Below are positions 2,237-8,119 of a stretch of DNA of 14,896 nucleotides, piece by piece. Origin of the DNA: a virus; the UHGV virus genome UHGV-0257029, one strand, 5' to 3'. A program made the translations under genes and the position numbers. The notes under the pieces are model-generated. The model was given only the letters and a program-made list of their open reading frames with translations. It had not been told where the DNA came from and made no database searches. Each line of letters starts with the position of its first letter. The first letter of the stretch is position 1.

Positions 2237-3124
2237 TCACTCCTGCGCCCATGAAGGCATTTCAGTTTGTCCGTAATCTTTGGTGGCAAAGTTTTCAGCC
2301 TTAAGTCCATTAGCAACCTTGCGTACCGGTCTGGATAACGCCTGCTTGTTCTGGTAGCTGAGTTTCTGGCTGGCAGTGATAAACCAGTTCTTTGGCTTCT
2401 CATGGCTAAATTCGATATCCAGCCTTTCCAGTTCGTAATTCAGGTCAATGTTCGGATACAGGCGCTTCCATGCTTCGTAGTCCTTGTGGTTTAACCGAAC
2501 GATATTTCCTTCGAAGGCATAGCGACTTGAAATTTTATGGACATCAGCCCCACCCCCTTCACAAGTCGCGTCAGCGGCTTGGGTGTTAGAAAGGGAATCA
2601 GGAATCAGGTTAAGGGAATCAGGAATCAGGTTAAGGGAATCAGCAGGATTTAAACTGTTCTCTACTGGTTCTTGCACTGTACTTGCATGGTGCTTTTCTG
2701 GTGCTTCATTGTTTTCAATGAACTGCAGTGATTCTACATCCTCCTTCTCTTCATCTTTATCGTCCTTGCACTGTACTTGCATGGTGCTGTTATTGTTCTC
2801 TACTGGTTCTGGTATCTCACTGGCAGCTTCTTTGCAGTGAGGGTTCTGGTGCTTTTTCCAGTTATTGATTTGGATATATGAGCCGCCATTTACCTGATAT
2901 CGGTTGATGAATTTGTGACTGTGAAGTTGCTGAAGCAGATCATTGCAGTCCACATCATCGAAAGGCAGTACCATTGCTTTAATTTTCTTTGGGCGATCAT
3001 CCAACCGCCCTTCTTTGTCAGCAATGGTCCATAACCCGGCAAAAAGGAGACGGGCATATGGAGAACACTCAGCTAATTCATCATTGGTGAAAAAGCCTGG
3101 TTTGATATTTCTTGAACGTGCCAT
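2237..3124 (-). CDS. Putative replication initiator / replisome organiser (not lambda O)
   Basis: Sits directly upstream of the DnaC-like gene in the lambda O position. Conserved-looking N-terminal domain (MARSRNIKPGFFTNDELAECSPYARLLFAGLWTIADKEGRL), acidic low-complexity linker encoded by DNA repeats, distinct C-terminal domain. ATG at 3124 with RBS aaggtgg. Confidence 0.5.
   Translation of the reverse strand: MARSRNIKPGFFTNDELAECSPYARLLFAGLWTIADKEGRLDDRPKKIKAMVLPFDDVDCNDLLQQLHSHKFINRYQVNGGSYIQINNWKKHQNPHCKEAASEIPEPVENNNSTMQVQCKDDKDEEKEDVESLQFIENNEAPEKHHASTVQEPVENSLNPADSLNLIPDSLNLIPDSLSNTQAADATCEGGGADVHKISSRYAFEGNIVRLNHKDYEAWKRLYPNIDLNYELERLDIEFSHEKPKNWFITASQKLSYQNKQALSRPVRKVANGLKAENFATKDYGQTEMPSWAQE
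2591..2644. repeat. 21-bp tandem repeat, about 2.5 copies (aagggaatcaggaatcaggtt), inside the initiator gene
   Basis: Read directly from the sequence; encodes the repeated peptide DSLNLIP on the minus strand. Confidence 0.85.
2656..2810. repeat. Two pairs of exact direct repeats (24 bp and 17 bp) flanking a moderately AT-rich spacer; iteron-like
   Basis: cttgcactgtacttgcatggtgct occurs at 2671..2694 and 2765..2788. tgttctctactggttct occurs at 2656..2672 and 2794..2810. Confidence 0.8.
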
Positions 3125-3135
3125 TTTGTCCACCT

Positions 3136-3936
3136 TTAGTACGGGAGTTCTTCCTGAGCTTCACGAATGCGTTCAGATACCCACTCCTTGAACGTTGTCC
3201 AGTTAGGTACTGTTTTCGCAAACTCAGTAAGTTCATCGAGATCTAAGTCGTATGAAAGCCATGCCTTGAGATAACTCATTACATGGTTTTGATTGATATA
3301 TATGCGGTTTTTAAGGATTCCTCTGATGTATAGAATCCTTTGTTCTTTTGGCGGTTTTCTTTTTGTCGCTGCTATGCGAGGGATGTACTCAAAGAATTCA
3401 CCAGTAAGCTCATGGGTTATTTCTTGGGTGAGTTTTTTGTCTGCGGCAATCTCAATCGCATCGAGGATTTCTTCAAGCTTATATATTCGAAGCCATCTCT
3501 TGATAGATTTTCGCCCATTGTCATTAACAGTAAATGGCGCAATGCAGTCGTCAATTTTGGTAGCGACAATATCAACAACATCGTCTTTCAGGCTCTTAAG
3601 ACCATCTCGCCACTTGATCATCATCTCCAGTTGCTCTCGCTTGGTATTAAGTTCCTGGAGTTGCTGCCTTTGCTTTTCCATTATTGAGTTATCGCTGAGC
3701 AGTTTGTCGCTTTTCCCGCCATTACAACTATCGCAAGAAGTAATAAGGTTCATCATGTCGTTATCGCCACCCTTGCTAACTGGGTTGATATGGTCGACAT
3801 GAAGGATGACGTCTGGCGCAGAACTCCCACAGTACTGGCATTTGAAGCCATCGCGCTTGAAAACCTCAAACCGTATTTTCTTGGTAATGCCGGAACGAAT
3901 CTTTTTTACTTGGTCTGGTGTAGGTTTTTTTGCCAT
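3136..3936 (-). CDS. HNH endonuclease domain protein
   Basis: HNH motif FKCQYCGSSAPDVILHVDHINPVSKGGDNDMMNLITSCDSCNGGK near the N-terminus. Start placed at the ATG at 3936 (RBS ggag 6 nt upstream) rather than the track start at 3948. Confidence 0.7.
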   Translation of the reverse strand: MAKKPTPDQVKKIRSGITKKIRFEVFKRDGFKCQYCGSSAPDVILHVDHINPVSKGGDNDMMNLITSCDSCNGGKSDKLLSDNSIMEKQRQQLQELNTKREQLEMMIKWRDGLKSLKDDVVDIVATKIDDCIAPFTVNDNGRKSIKRWLRIYKLEEILDAIEIAADKKLTQEITHELTGEFFEYIPRIAATKRKPPKEQRILYIRGILKNRIYINQNHVMSYLKAWLSYDLDLDELTEFAKTVPNWTTFKEWVSERIREAQEELPY

Positions 3937-3957
3937 AATTAACTCCATAGAAAGCAG

Positions 3958-4257
3958 TTAAAAATCCATCTGGATTTGTTCAGAACGCTCGGTCTTGCAC
4001 ACCGGGCGTTTTTTATTGGTGAGTCCATCAAGCGCATACTTAAAAGCCCTGCTAATCGGACTGATGTCTGATGCCATTCCGAAAGCACACAAGACCGAAG
4101 CAATAAACCGCCAGTCCGTTCTGCTTATCTTCGATTCATGACAGCCAATCATCTTTGCCAGACCGCGCTGGGTAAGCGTTGACAGGTTGATGAGTAAATC
4201 TGTTTCTGCGCGATCAATTTCTCGCTGTGTTGGCTTGCTATAACTTGCTTGTGTCAT
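3958..4257 (-). CDS. cII: CII-like transcriptional activator
   Basis: First gene after cro on the pR operon. C-terminal ...LTNKKRP..TERSEQIQMDF closely resembles the lambda CII C-terminus as recalled; N-terminal part diverges. Confidence 0.65.
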   Translation of the reverse strand: MTQASYSKPTQREIDRAETDLLINLSTLTQRGLAKMIGCHESKISRTDWRFIASVLCAFGMASDISPISRAFKYALDGLTNKKRPVCKTERSEQIQMDF

Positions 4258-4294
4258 TTGTTAATTTTCCAATAGTGAATAGTTAGTTGAAAGG

Positions 4295-4312
4295 TATGCG
4301 TGGAAACGCATA
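4295..4312 (-). terminator. Palindromic hairpin at the tR1 position between nutR and cII
   Basis: tatgcgt-ggaa-acgcata, 7-bp stem; no strong U-tract, so more likely an attenuator or rho-dependent pause than a strong intrinsic terminator. Confidence 0.3.
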
Positions 4313-4341
4313 TGGCCTTAGTTGGTCAGATATCTTGGGGC

Positions 4342-4356
4342 TCGCTTTGTCAGCGA
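4342..4356 (-). promoter_or_regulatory. Candidate nutR boxB hairpin
   Basis: Minus-strand tcgctgacaaagcga, preceded by ctacg, between cro and cII. Same core cgctgacaaagcg as the element upstream of N. Confidence 0.45.
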
Positions 4357-4394
4357 CGTAGGACGAATGTCCATTGTGAAAATAGCGGTGTTAC

Positions 4395-4595
4395 TTATGC
4401 AGTTGTTTTTTTGTTACTTGGGAAGGGCTTTATTTCTTCCGCATAAACGCTTCCATCAGCGTTTATAGTTAAAAAAATCTTTCGGCCTGCATGAATGGCC
4501 TTGTTAATCGCGCTTTGATATACGCCGAGATCTTTAGCCGTCTTGGTTTGCCCAAAGCGTATTGCATAATCTTTCAGGGTTATGCGTTGTTCCAT
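4395..4595 (-). CDS. cro: Cro repressor
   Basis: 66-aa translation [65 protein letters not shown] matches lambda Cro as recalled. RBS aggag upstream; transcribed from pR. Confidence 0.95.
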
Positions 4596-4614
4596 ACAAC
4601 CTCCTTAGTACAGG

Positions 4615-4690
4615 TAATCATTATCACCGCTAGAGGTATAATAGTCAACACGCACGGTGTTAGATATTTATCCCTTGCGGTGATAGATTT
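4615..4690. promoter_or_regulatory. OR1-OR2-OR3 operators with divergent pR (toward cro) and pRM (toward cI)
   Basis: OR1 4622..4638 tatcaccgctagaggta, OR2 4646..4662 caacacgcacggtgtta, OR3 4669..4685 tatcccttgcggtgata. pR on the minus strand: -35 ttgact (plus 4643..4648), -10 gataat (plus 4620..4625), 17-bp spacer. pRM on the plus strand: -35 tagata 4661..4666, -10 tagatt 4684..4689; cI ATG at 4696 is leaderless. Confidence 0.9.
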
Positions 4691-4692
4691 AA

Positions 4693-5409
<717 letters not shown>

Positions 5410-5479
5410 TGAATGGCTAAATGTCTCCTAATAAAAACAGCAATCATTTGAAATTATTAATAATTATAGAGGCTTAGTC

Positions 5480-6478
5480 TTGGAAATCAGCACGGCGGTT
5501 ATTCATTCCGAAGAAGATGCTTTGCGTTTTGTTGAGATGTACATCGCTGGGCAAGATCTTCCTGATGGAATATCATTTGAAGGGTGGCCTAACTTAACCT
5601 TCCGTCTTACTGGTGACAAATTTCATGGCAGTTTGACTCCTTCTGTCATGAAGGGTTTTGTTGAAATGCAGGCCCAAATAAACCGAGCTTATGCATTGTT
5701 AAAGTACGGAGTTCCTGACCCAAGAAAGCTTTCAAAAGAAGAGAAGGAAGCTATCGAAATTCAGGTGAATGTTGAGAATGGCTCGTCCTTGATAGAAGTT
5801 AATATGGATGGGTTCATGGGTGAGGTTATACAAACTGCGGTGAGTAAAGTGGGCCCTCAAGAGATCGTTATTACAGTTTTAGGGGTCGCTCTTATATGGG
5901 GCGGCGTCGTCCTATTCAAAAAATATCTAGAAGACCGCAAAGAGATTCGCATGGCAGAAGTAAAAAGCGAGTCTGAGCGTGAACACCTTGCGACCATGCG
6001 CTTCATGTCTGAGCAGGAAACAAAACGAAGTGAATTATTGACTCAGATTATTAGCGAAAAACCCAAGCTAGACAACATGGAAAGACTTGCTCATGACGCA
6101 AAAACCGACATAGTTAAATCATTTGTCAAGGCTGATACAGCTCAGATTGATGGCGTTGTATTGGATGCAGATCTATCCAAAACCCTCACTACAAATGCAA
6201 GGCGGAAATCAATGGAGATCCGCCTTGATGGAAATTATCGCATTGAAAAGGTTGACTCCACTGATCCAGAGAGCTTCAAAGTGCAAGTGAGAAATGTTGA
6301 CTCCGATCTAAGAATATCGTGCATAGTACAAGATGTATTTCTCGACGCATCCGAGCATAAAAAAGCTCTTCAGCAAGCTGAGTGGGATAGAAAACCAGTT
6401 CATTTGTCAATCAACGCAAAAGAACTAGATGGTGAAATAAAGTCCGCGATAATACTTTATGTCAAAGAGATAACATAA
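5480..6478 (+). CDS. Unknown 332-aa protein with one central predicted transmembrane helix, in the rexA/rexB position
   Basis: ORF on the cI strand between cI and OL. TTG start at 5480 with RBS agagg 8 nt upstream (alternative ATG at 5537). Hydrophobic segment IVITVLGVALIWGGVVLF near residues 131-148. No resemblance to RexA or RexB as recalled, and no kinase or nuclease motifs seen. Confidence 0.6.
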   Translation: MEISTAVIHSEEDALRFVEMYIAGQDLPDGISFEGWPNLTFRLTGDKFHGSLTPSVMKGFVEMQAQINRAYALLKYGVPDPRKLSKEEKEAIEIQVNVENGSSLIEVNMDGFMGEVIQTAVSKVGPQEIVITVLGVALIWGGVVLFKKYLEDRKEIRMAEVKSESEREHLATMRFMSEQETKRSELLTQIISEKPKLDNMERLAHDAKTDIVKSFVKADTAQIDGVVLDADLSKTLTTNARRKSMEIRLDGNYRIEKVDSTDPESFKVQVRNVDSDLRISCIVQDVFLDASEHKKALQQAEWDRKPVHLSINAKELDGEIKSAIILYVKEIT

Positions 6479-6485
6479 TCCTCAT

Positions 6486-6511
6486 CCCGGCCTCAGCGCC
6501 GGGTTTTCTTT
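6486..6511 (+). terminator. Intrinsic terminator after the cargo gene (tImm-like position)
   Basis: cccggc-ctcagc-gccggg, 6-bp all-GC stem, followed by ttttcttt, starting 8 nt after the stop. Confidence 0.75.
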
Positions 6512-6663
6512 GCCTCACGATCGCCCCACCTAAAAACACATAACCAATTGTATTTGTTGAAAAATAAATAGATACAACTCACTAAACATCGCAATTCTGA
6601 TCTCTCGCCCTCCAAAGCAATACCCCAATTCAAAAAATAAATTCATATAAAAAACATACAGAT

Positions 6664-6726
6664 AACCATCTGCGGTGATGAGTTATCTCTGGCGGTGTTG
6701 ACATGAATACCACTAGCGGTGATACT
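6664..6726 (+). promoter_or_regulatory. OL3-OL2-OL1 operators and pL promoter
   Basis: OL3 6664..6680 aaccatctgcggtgatg, OL2 6684..6700 tatctctggcggtgttg, OL1 6708..6724 taccactagcggtgata. pL -35 ttgaca 6698..6703, -10 gatact 6721..6726, 17-bp spacer. Confidence 0.85.
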
Positions 6727-6794
6727 AAACACATCAGCAGGACGCACTACTCACCAGGGCGGTGAATATACAACGATTCGAATATGAATCTACG

Positions 6795-6809
6795 GCGCTG
6801 ACAAAGCGC
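6795..6809 (+). promoter_or_regulatory. Candidate nutL boxB hairpin
   Basis: gcgctgacaaagcgc (4-bp GC stem, 7-nt loop) about 70 nt downstream of the pL -10, preceded by ctacg. Same core as the candidate nutR. Confidence 0.45.
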
Positions 6810-6937
6810 AATAACCAAAGTGAACTTTGGGGTGAATGCAGAGGCTAACCTTCTCGGCGGAGGCGCTTTGCAATGATTACGCGACCGGAGTTAGTCGCCC
6901 GGCTGTATTCACCACCAAAGTTCATCAGGAGGTCTAT

Positions 6938-7321
6938 ATGACACGCAGAACTCAGTTCAAAGGCAATTCACGTTCTCGTCGTCGTGAGCGTTTAAAGGCA
7001 AAGGCATTAGCTAACGGCGTACTGGCCCGCGAAGAAGCAATAAGTTCAGAAGTATTACACCGCCCTACTCTAAGCAGAGCGCAGATTCAGGCTAAAGGTA
7101 CTCACGAAACGCCTGAGCGCATAGAAGACGCTAAGCCAATTAAGTTCATGGCACAGGACGTGATCTGGCAACAGAAAGAATACAGACGCAATCTGGAGCG
7201 AGCGGCCATTGTGTACGCGAATGAGTTTGGACATAAGCAACCAGAAACTGGTGTATGTCTTCCAGATGTAGCTCTTTACGCAGCAGGATACCGGAAATCA
7301 AAACAACTGACGGCGAGATGA
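6938..7321 (+). CDS. N: N-type antiterminator (non-lambda N; arginine-rich motif)
   Basis: First gene downstream of pL/nutL. ATG at 6938 has a strong RBS aggagg; the 6836 track start would swallow nutL. N-terminal MTRRTQFKGNSRSRRRERLKAKA is an arginine-rich motif. Not the lambda N sequence as recalled; resembles N of Stx-type lambdoid phages from memory. Confidence 0.7.
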   Translation: MTRRTQFKGNSRSRRRERLKAKALANGVLAREEAISSEVLHRPTLSRAQIQAKGTHETPERIEDAKPIKFMAQDVIWQQKEYRRNLERAAIVYANEFGHKQPETGVCLPDVALYAAGYRKSKQLTAR

Positions 7322-7379
7322 CTTGTGTTGGTCGCCAGAAAATGAAATTAGGCAGCAAACCACTTATTTGAGGTGAGAT

Positions 7380-7466
7380 ATGGAAGAAGAATTTGAAGAG
7401 TTCGAAGAGCATCCGCAGGATGTAATGGAACAGTACCAGGACTATCCGTATGACTACGACTATTGA
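7380..7466 (+). CDS. Candidate 28-aa highly acidic micro-ORF
   Basis: ATG at 7380 preceded by gaggtgag. Translation MEEEFEEFEEHPQDVMEQYQDYPYDYDY. Overlaps the ral start by 17 nt. Below the ORF-track cutoff. Confidence 0.2.
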   Translation: MEEEFEEFEEHPQDVMEQYQDYPYDYDY

Positions 7467-7650
7467 TAAGAATCAATGGTGTGGACAATTCAAGCGATGC
7501 AATGGATGCAAGCTGCAATCGGAATGCATGGTTAAGCCTGAAGAAATGTTTCCTGTAATGGAGGATGGGAAATATGTCGATAAATGGGCAATACGAACGA
7601 CGGCAATGATTGCCAGAGAACTTGACAAACAGAACAACAAGGCTGCCTGA
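7450..7650 (+). CDS. ral: Ral (restriction alleviation) protein
   Basis: 66-aa translation MTTTIDKNQWCGQFKRCNGCKLQSEC... matches lambda Ral as recalled; four-Cys cluster. Confidence 0.75.
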   Translation: MTTTIDKNQWCGQFKRCNGCKLQSECMVKPEEMFPVMEDGKYVDKWAIRTTAMIARELDKQNNKAA

Positions 7651-7669
7651 TGGTAGCCTTTATCTTTGG
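7639..7669 (+). terminator. Intrinsic terminator overlapping the ral stop codon
   Basis: aaggctgcc-tgat-ggtagcctt, 9-bp stem with one G-U pair, followed by tatctttgg. The TGA stop lies in the loop. Confidence 0.55.
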
Positions 7670-7786
7670 CATAAACAACAGAATAAACACTGCACTGTGT
7701 ATTCATTCCAACGAGTGAATACACGGAGCAATGTCGCTCGTAACTAAACAGGAGCCGACTTGTTCTGATTATTGGAAATCTTCTTT

Positions 7787-7811
7787 GCCCTCCTATGTGA
7801 GGGCCTTTTTA
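7787..7811 (+). terminator. Intrinsic terminator upstream of cIII
   Basis: gccctc-ctatgt-gagggc followed by cttttt; presumably read through under N antitermination. Confidence 0.6.
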
Positions 7812-7872
7812 TATGCATACCAATAACGCTTCATTCGAGGCGTTTTCGTTATGTATAAATAAGGAGCACACC

Positions 7873-8013
7873 ATGCAATATGCCATTGCAGGGTGGCCTG
7901 TTGCTGGCTGCCCTTCCGAATCTTTACTTGAACGAATCACACGTAAATTACGTGATGGATGGAAACGCCTTATCGACATACTTAATCAGCCAGGAGTTCC
8001 CAAAAATGGATAA
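7873..8013 (+). CDS. cIII: CIII (FtsH/HflB inhibitor), shorter C-terminus than lambda
   Basis: MQYAIAGWPVAGCPSESLLERITRKLRDGWKRLIDILNQPGVPKNG matches lambda CIII as recalled except for the truncated C-terminus. RBS aaggag 6 nt upstream of the ATG at 7873; the track start at 7813 lacks an RBS. Confidence 0.85.
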   Translation: MQYAIAGWPVAGCPSESLLERITRKLRDGWKRLIDILNQPGVPKNG

Positions 8014-8119
8014 AACACTTATGGCTATCCAGACTAAATTCACTATCGCCACTTTTATTGGCGATGAAAAGATGTTTCGTGAAGCCGTAGAAGCCTACAG
8101 AAAATGGAGGTCAAAATGA
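8006..8119 (+). CDS. kil: Kil-like host-killing / FtsZ-inhibiting small protein
   Basis: MDKTLMAIQTKFTIATFIGDEKMFREAV... resembles lambda Kil as recalled. ATG overlaps the cIII 3' end. Confidence 0.7.
   Translation: MDKTLMAIQTKFTIATFIGDEKMFREAVEAYRKWRSK

Follow-up and report, generated by a model that had tools for sequence, protein, structure and literature searches.

In phage H-19B (AF034975), the N protein acting with NusA and NusG suppresses Rho-dependent termination at nutR/tR1 both in vivo and in vitro (PMC3526286). The same study describes two hairpins in H-19B nutR and reports that N with NusA/NusG shields the spacer and boxB from RNase but leaves boxA unprotected (PMC3526286). Antitermination by H-19B N is abolished by the substitutions R3H, S11F, R15C/P and R18P, and also when the arginine-rich motif (ARM) 12-RSRRRER-18 is replaced by alanine (PMC3526286). 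For phage P22, the complex of an N peptide with boxB (1A4T) shows a GACAA pentaloop that is GNRA-like, with the C looped out (PMC12550061). An N of the H-19B type is found together with lambda-specificity cI, cro and operators in mEp234 and HK106 (EF120460, EF120461; Degnan et al. 2007, Mol Microbiol 64:232), whose GenBank records place “putative” nutL and nutR boxA and boxB elements at positions homologous to those discussed below, with “boundary sequences” at the module edges, and also in HK97 (AF069529; Juhala et al. 2000).

We analyzed a stretch of 14,896 nt from the viral genome UHGV-0257029 (hereafter the window), in which pL is directed rightward, cI (+) and cro (−) diverge from oR, and N follows pL. 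Our reading, to which we assign a probability of about 95%, is that the window carries a standard lambdoid early-regulation unit with a lambda-specificity cassette (cro, oR, cI, a cargo gene and oL/pL) flanked by the two nut sites of an N system of the HK97/H-19B type. The sequence-only reading from which this work started had described lambda-type immunity combined with a non-lambda N and matching nut sites. That interpretation is essentially right, and the combination has been described before and is common. The mosaic is not new, since HK97 has an identical cI together with this N and these nut sites, and EF120460/EF120461 annotate the boxA and boxB elements.

The lambda character of the immunity cassette is seen in its proteins and in its DNA sites. 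The cI repressor (4696..5409, + strand) is identical to lambda cI at 235 of 237 residues (99.2%) and to HK97 cI at all 237, and Cro (4395..4595, − strand, stop codon 4395-4397) agrees with lambda Cro at 64/66 residues (97%) and matches the Pfam Cro family with an E-value of 8e-34. All six operators had been called lambda type, and this holds up with small departures: oR2 (4646-4662), oR3 (4669-4685) and oL2 (6684-6700) are the same as in lambda, oR1 (4622-4638) and oL1 (6708-6724) each carry the single mismatch G8A, and oL3 (6664-6680) has one terminal mismatch. The change in oR1 is common to HK97 and mEp234. Both early promoters are intact, pR with its −35 and −10 elements at 4648-4620 (− strand) and pL at 6698-6726 (+ strand) with a −35 TTGACA (6698-6703), 17 nt, and a −10 GATACT (6721-6726); homology to lambda and the annotation of mEp234 put the pL +1 at 6733. 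By sequence, the near-identical cI and Cro and the six matching operators place the window within the imm-lambda specificity, and mEp234/HK106, with operators closely matching those of the window, were isolated as lambda-immunity phages (GenBank record annotation, Degnan et al. 2007).

The N gene (6938..7321, + strand) encodes 127 aa and has a Shine-Dalgarno sequence, AGGAGG, at 6927-6932 ahead of its ATG. The product is a small basic protein with an N-terminal ARM, 12-RSRRRER-18, and belongs to the lambdoid N family by its profile matches to Pfam N_peptide PF25694 (E 1e-15; 58.5 bits against a cutoff of 27.9) and to phrog_271, “anti-termination protein N-like” (E 2.6e-38). The claim that it is not lambda N is borne out by a multiple alignment, in which identity to lambda N is 30%, compared with 98% to the N proteins of H-19B (124/127, 97.6%), HK97 (125/127, 98.4%) and mEp234 (98%). 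Alignment of N together with both nut regions gave the same answer, a match to H-19B, HK97 and mEp234 and not to lambda. About 100 phage records, including many Stx1/Stx2 phages, mEp234, HK106 and HK97, encode a protein at least 90% identical to this one, so that the N of the window, though not lambda N, is a very familiar N. At more than 90% identity to H-19B and HK97 N it falls in the HK97/H-19B-type subgroup, and it stands apart from lambda N proper in its boxB stem and loop as well. The arrangement is that of lambdoid N/nut systems in general, with N first in the pL operon and one nut site per early transcript.

The relation to P22 gp24 is more distant (40% identity in the multiple alignment, 29% in global pairwise alignment). 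The two proteins share a related ARM (F-GN---RR-ER; FKGNSRSRRRERLK here and FAGNAKTRRHERRR in gp24) and a related C-terminal end (LPxVALYAAGxRKSKQxTAR), the ARM cores KTRRHERRR of gp24 and RSRRRERLK of the window being related but not identical. A sequence search of the PDB with N returned chance-level matches only and no N peptide; short peptides do not score in such a search, and the link to the P22 complex therefore rests on RNA identity and on the literature.

Between nutL and N lies a long leader hairpin (6820..6925, + strand; z −4.4) with a 22-bp basal stem (6820-6841/6903-6925) and a variable apex, which ends just before the Shine-Dalgarno sequence. HK97 has the apical sequence replaced and the base conserved, and its hairpin still folds (z −4.3); the apical part in the window (6835-6909) is H-19B-like and not HK97-like. 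The lambda N leader contains an RNase III site, which this hairpin resembles, and a corresponding role may be suggested for it.

The sequence-only reading had noticed an element downstream of pL that recurs on the minus strand between cro and cII, with ctacg ahead of both copies. Direct reading of the sequence and a pattern search agree with it on each of these points. The plus strand at 6790-6809 reads CTACG followed by GCGCTGACAAAGCGC (ctacg-gcgctgacaaagcgc), and the minus strand at 4342-4361, as reverse complement, reads CTACG followed by TCGCTGACAAAGCGA (ctacg-tcgctgacaaagcga). Searching the window for the 19-nt core motif CTACGNCGCTGACAAAGCG with up to two mismatches returned two sites, which are the nutL/nutR pair only, compared with none in 200 dinucleotide-preserving shuffles. 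The elements also lie where nutL and nutR boxB had been expected: nutL boxB GCGCUGACAAAGCGC (6795..6809, + strand) occupies +63 to +77 of the pL transcript, and nutR boxB UCGCUGACAAAGCGA (4342..4356, − strand) lies 39-53 nt past the cro stop codon. Both are annotated as boxB in EF120460; the nutL copy is the same as P22 nutL boxB at 15/15 positions, and the nutR copy is the same in H-19B, HK97 and mEp234.

RNA folding, which had been put forward as a check, gives the same structure for both elements, (((((.....))))), that is, a 5-bp stem closed by a GACAA pentaloop, with energies of −8.5 kcal/mol for nutL (z −3.3) and −6.4 kcal/mol for nutR (z −2.2). The sole difference between the two copies is the outermost stem pair, G-C in nutL and U-A in nutR, and this substitution is compensatory. 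The boxB of lambdoid N/nut systems is characteristically a short hairpin, its 5-bp stem closed by a purine-rich pentaloop, and is alike at both nut sites. The structural support is confined to the local hairpins, as the 81-nt nutR context folds no better than shuffles (z −0.47), and an Rfam scan of the window at the gathering threshold returned no nut or boxB match, its sole match being the cIII thermoregulator. We also considered whether the boxB hairpins might be intrinsic terminators; neither was called terminator-like in a scan, and no U-run follows either one. The shared loop had been contrasted with the lambda boxB, given as GCCCTGAAAAAGGGC; that sequence is right for lambda nutR, and the loop of lambda nutL is GAAGA.

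Upstream of each boxB is a second short hairpin. In nutL it is GAUUC-GAAUAU-GAAUC (6775..6790, + strand) and in nutR it is GGAC-AUUC-GUCC (4361..4372, − strand); both fold, and both end 4 nt (UACG) ahead of boxB. It follows from the alignments of the two sites that the ctacg ahead of each copy consists of the base that ends the spacer hairpin and a linker of 4 nt. Among the 97 IMG/VR copies listed, the loop of the nutL spacer hairpin varies (GAATAT, AAATAT, AAGCAA, AAACAT) and its arms are invariant, and an IMG/VR variant of the nutR hairpin has an A-to-G change that keeps the pairing as G-U. The nut architecture is thus a spacer hairpin, a UACG linker and a (G/U)CGCUGACAAAGCG(C/A) boxB, nutL having the G-C form and nutR the U-A form, and it is that of the HK97/H-19B-type N-nut subgroup.

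The boxA elements are less clear. A search of the window with the boxA consensus (up to two mismatches) gave 39 matches against 41 expected; matches are therefore no more frequent than chance and the consensus by itself cannot carry a boxA call. The nutR site has a boxA-like CGCTATTTT (4379..4387, − strand; 7/9 to CGCTCTTTA) lying 8 nt past the cro stop and 22 nt upstream of boxB. It matches the H-19B variant exactly, and the corresponding element in EF120460 is CGCTCTTTT. At nutL, the stretch CGCACTACT (6743..6751, + strand), labeled “putative nutL boxA” in EF120460, is weak (5/9 to CGCTCTTTA) and lies 43 nt upstream of boxB; lambda has CGCACT at that position, not used there as boxA. Between pL and nutL boxB, no match to the boxA consensus was found with up to two mismatches. 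The H-19B N-nut system has been studied by Neely and Friedman (in 1998 and 2000) and by the Sen laboratory (PMC3526286 among others). In the 2000 work of Neely and Friedman, H-19B N reportedly required NusA, with boxA and NusB/S10 dispensable, and the spacer hairpin was reportedly described as a “reducer” that brings the flanking elements together. Independence of H-19B N from boxA and NusB-S10 would fit the weak or absent nutL boxA of the window. A literature search on the H-19B “reducer” hairpin found nothing relevant.

Compared with the described systems one by one, the window shares with HK97 cI (100%), N (98.4%), cro, oR and oL, both boxB elements, both spacer hairpins and the joints. Apart from the N-leader apex, it differs from HK97 in its nutR boxA (CGCTCTTTT in HK97, CGCTATTTT in the window) and in the cargo between cI and oL, which is gp49/gp48 in HK97 and a 332-aa ORF here. 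In mEp234/HK106 the cargo is hicAB plus one ORF, and the nutL spacer loop and the N leader differ slightly in sequence. H-19B has a 97.6%-identical N, a nutR core (boxA, spacer hairpin and boxB) identical to that of the window and 97.5% nucleotide identity over 6732-7382, from the pL +1 through nutL and N, but its cI, cro and operators are unrelated and its immunity is different. P22 has the GACAA pentaloop at both of its nut sites; its nutR stem sequence differs, its canonical boxA CGCTCTTTA is 11 nt upstream of boxB, and it is without the spacer hairpin and the CUACG linker. Lambda agrees in its gene order, in where the nut sites lie on the pL and pR transcripts, in a boxB with a 5-bp stem and a purine-rich pentaloop, and in the conserved pL leader start and CAAAG...CTTTGGGGTG leader motif; it differs in its boxB, GCCCUGAA(G/A)AAGGGC, and in its boxA, 8 nt from boxB without a spacer hairpin.

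The residues mutated in H-19B N are all present in the N of the window, and since the nutR core is identical as well, we assign 6795-6809 and 4342-4356 with high confidence as the probable boxB sites of this N. We expect the module to function in the way it does in H-19B and HK97. Each early transcript, from pL and from pR, would carry a nut site in which a short spacer hairpin is followed by a UACG linker and then by the boxB hairpin, and N, the product of the first gene of the pL operon, would act there with NusA and NusG to turn RNA polymerase termination-resistant. Polymerase from pR would then read through tR1, a Rho-dependent region that would lie between nutR boxB and cII, into cII and the replication genes, and polymerase from pL would pass the leftward terminators and transcribe ral, cIII and the recombination genes. 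P22 nutL boxB has the same GACAA loop and the same stem as the nutL boxB here, so the boxB loop is likely to resemble a GNRA tetraloop, its third base (C) being flipped out. Given the low overall identity to P22 gp24, a P22-like geometry of RNA recognition is presumed here. Antitermination activity in this particular prophage is likewise a prediction.

Two other views of these elements deserve comment. The repeated 20-mer could act at the DNA level, as a palindromic protein-binding site or a recombination “linker,” rather than as an RNA hairpin bound by N; it is indeed an inverted repeat in DNA, it lies near the module joints, and it is highly conserved across immunity types. The joints themselves, though, are upstream of the repeat (pL +1 to +33 and the cro stop codon) and not at it, each copy points along its own transcript, and the only difference between them compensates RNA pairing. 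With the sequence being that of P22 boxB, for which an RNA-peptide complex has been solved, and with N-dependent protection of boxB seen in H-19B RNA footprinting (PMC3526286), a DNA-level role strikes us as extremely improbable. The N/nut module might instead be a non-functional relic of a defective prophage, as the “hypothetical protein” label of N in RefSeq and the pseudogene fragments (metallophosphoesterase, DUF551) elsewhere in the prophage could suggest. Against this, N has an unbroken reading frame behind a strong Shine-Dalgarno sequence, and 2-3 conservative residue differences separate it from proteins that are tested or known; all ARM residues found by mutation of H-19B N are retained, pL, pR and the operators are intact, and both nut sites match the commonest natural variants among the IMG/VR matches listed, so that we consider decay of the module very unlikely.

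The boundaries of the modules were mapped by blastn. Lambda aligns over 4384-5410 (cro, oR and cI; 96.2% identity), over 6486-6765 (terminator, oL and pL to +33; 90.7%) and over 7355-8108 (ral to cIII; 95.4-95.9%), and H-19B aligns over 4000-4402 (cII and nutR; 92.8%) and 6732-7382 (pL +1, nutL and N; 97.5%). This map places the exchanges within three short shared stretches, 6732-6765, 4384-4402 and 7355-7382. The left stretch (6732..6765, + strand), which is pL +1 to +33, joins the immunity cassette to the N module, and within it the 17 nt CATCAGCAGGACGCACT are invariant in the window, lambda, HK97, H-19B and mEp234, the first 14 nt, CATCAGCAGGACGC, also being present in P22. The right stretch (4384..4402), common to lambda and H-19B, comprises the end of cro, its stop codon and boxA, and joins the cassette to the nutR-cII segment; among IMG/VR variants the divergence at this boundary begins directly upstream of GCATAAGTAACACCGCT. 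The cII gene (3958..4257, − strand) is HK97/H-19B-like (88% to HK97, 83% to H-19B, 37.5% to lambda) and travels with nutR. There is also a third joint just past N (7355..7382, + strand), at the distal boundary of the N cassette, where H-19B homology running to 7382 overlaps the lambda homology that resumes at 7355 in the ral region and the sequence returns to a lambda-like state. The sequence-only reading had placed the joints very close to the operators on both sides. On the left this is correct, with 8-41 bp between the joint and the end of oL1 at 6724, but on the right the distance to oR1 is about 220 bp, because cro is inside the cassette, which puts the joint at the cro stop/boxA.

It had also been proposed that the nut sites changed along with N. 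The nut sites and N do represent one module type, as H-19B, HK97 and mEp234, whose N is 98% identical, have the same or nearly the same nut sites; the word “changed,” however, is no more economical than a lambda-type immunity cassette placed between the nut sites of an HK97/H-19B-type backbone, a description we find at least as economical as replacement of N and nut. Acquisition of N with nutL and of nutR with cII by a lambda-like phage, in two replacements rather than by a one-step double-crossover insertion of the immunity cassette into an HK97/H-19B-type genome, would account for there being two distinct non-lambda patches, 4023-4384 and 6765-7355, both flanked at either end by lambda-like DNA, to which ral and cIII downstream of N belong. 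Viewed against H-19B, though, there is one replaced patch, from 4402 to 6732, and a one-step route keeps N and the nut sites matched automatically. Among the IMG/VR matches listed, moreover, the nut pair brackets five cro/oR classes, as exchange of cassettes between constant nut sites would give. We therefore regard the two replacements as unlikely, though by no means negligible; sequence alone cannot order the events, and the five immunity classes between the same nut pair favor wording the history as insertion of a cassette.

The survey behind this statement was a scan of IMG/VR for the 19-nt boxB motif, which returned at least 120 stretches, and the counts given here refer to the matches listed. 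Among these, at least 79 stretches have a divergent nut pair, and in all 79 pairs listed a GCGC...GCGC stem in one copy is accompanied by a TCGC...GCGA stem in the other. The 900 nt adjoining nutR fall into five classes among the matches listed, of which the lambda type is the largest with at least 36 loci plus the window, and the immunity classes diverge exactly from the two boundary stretches. A cI at least 90% identical to that of the window is present in at least 47 of the listed loci and an N at least 90% identical in at least 88, and the nutL sequence of the window is the commonest of 27 variants listed. The region 4200-7400 is 100% identical to a prophage adjoining sbcB in E. coli strain 20AR0300 (NZ_CP195498.1), and other complete E. 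coli genomes share its cI, cro, N and nut sites and differ in their cargo genes. The RefSeq record with the 100% match annotates N as a “hypothetical protein,” a label that could be corrected.

The cargo gene of the window is a 332-aa ORF (5480-6478) that fills the slot of lambda rexAB, HK97 gp49/48 and mEp234 hicAB. The region between cI and N is a recognized mosaic hotspot for accessory genes (PMC7067206, citing Degnan et al.). The ORF belongs to phrog_6191, “unknown function,” and PADLOC gave no match and Pfam none above cutoff. Its homologues are all annotated “hypothetical”; in a marine island they adjoin a Type ISP restriction enzyme, and in Enterobacter prophages they occupy the Q-holin moron slot. 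The AF2 model, a confident one (pLDDT 85), has an alpha/beta domain at the N terminus, then long helices, and at the C terminus a beta domain, for which Foldseek against the PDB gave weak OB-fold-like matches only. A BFVD structure search returned uncharacterized proteins only, and the accession of the ORF is not mentioned in the literature searched. The most open item of the region is this uncharacterized gene, not the antitermination module.

At a speculative level, and with considerable doubt, we may ask whether the invariant arrangement of spacer hairpin, UACG linker and boxB forms a recognition unit distinct from the nut sites of lambda and P22, in which the hairpin and linker would replace the boxA/NusB-S10 input. 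The strictly kept asymmetry between nutL (G-C closing pair, without a credible boxA) and nutR (U-A closing pair, with a boxA-like element) could then tune N loading differently for each early operon, and, because nutL boxB is the same as P22 nutL boxB, co-resident P22-type and HK97-type prophages might cross-activate their pL operons.

As a whole, the locus is a textbook case of lambdoid modular mosaicism, in which immunity cassettes are swapped between conserved boundary sequences (the pL transcript start on one side and the cro stop/boxA on the other). Among the IMG/VR matches listed, this N-nut module is most often paired with lambda-type immunity, and N stays matched to its two nut sites while the immunity cassettes swap.

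Among the IMG/VR matches listed (L010-L129, found in a scan for the 19-nt core motif), the same pair of divergent nutL and nutR sites flanks five different classes of cro, oR and repressor, with 1240 to 3490 bp separating the two sites. The closing pair of the boxB hairpin is G-C in every nutL and U-A in every nutR of the same listed matches. The operators of the window depart from those of lambda at few positions: oR1 (4622-4638) and oL1 (6708-6724) share the same single change, TACC(T/A)CTAGCGGTGATA, G8A, which in oR1 is also present in HK97 and mEp234, and the last base of oL3 (6664-6680) is G in the window and A in lambda.

The repressor and operators of H-19B are unrelated to those of the window, although two stretches around the cargo slot are common to both: 29 bp at the end of cI (5383-5411, 100% identical) and 126 bp around the terminator upstream of oL (6479-6604, 93% identical). 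The two stretches may be further boundary sequences on either side of the slot.

The N leader is predicted to fold into an extended hairpin (6820-6925, plus strand; fold z of −4.4) with a 22-bp basal stem (6820-6841/6903-6925), and its 3' end lies directly ahead of the N Shine-Dalgarno sequence. The apical segment (6835-6909) is H-19B-like, whereas HK97 and mEp234 carry a different one; despite this, the HK97 leader folds to the same kind of extended stem. In lambda, an RNase III site in the N leader serves in the control of N translation, and by analogy the hairpin described here is probably its counterpart. With regard to annotation, the RefSeq record of the source strain (NZ_CP195498.1; L006 10739-11122, WP_042030609.1) labels this N gene only “hypothetical protein”; in other genomes, the near-identical copies bear the name “transcriptional antitermination N peptide.” At the gathering threshold, a search of the whole window against Rfam returned the cIII thermoregulator Lambda_thermo (RF01804; 7860-7918, plus strand, 88.5 bits) and no other family.

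The cII gene (3958-4257, minus strand) is itself a mosaic, being mostly HK97/H-19B-like (protein identity of 88 and 83%, respectively) with a lambda-like 3' end (3965-4023). A strong terminator-like hairpin on the other strand (3982-4012, plus) overlaps this end, in the place of the oop terminator. Past cII, in the place of lambda O and P, the RefSeq annotation lists two “HNH endonuclease” proteins in a row and then an “ATP-binding protein” (window ~2237-3948, minus strand; L006 5040-7737), with a third “HNH endonuclease” further downstream (L006 3797-4408). Such a set of genes would be unusual as a replication or early-right module.

Between the stop codon of cI and a Timm-like terminator (6486-6503), the rexAB slot is occupied by a 332-aa ORF (5480-6478, plus strand) that matches phrog_6191, labelled “unknown function.” PADLOC gave no match for this ORF, a Pfam search gave nothing over the cutoff, and all 122 of its homologues are annotated as “hypothetical.” Homologues are found in a marine island, adjoining a Type ISP R-M enzyme, and in Enterobacter prophages, in the slot between Q and holin. 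In the AF2 model of the product (pLDDT 85), an alpha/beta domain at the N terminus is accompanied by long helices, one of them hydrophobic (residues ~128-150), and by an OB-like beta domain at the C terminus. We consider this ORF a candidate for an exclusion or defence gene expressed in the lysogen.
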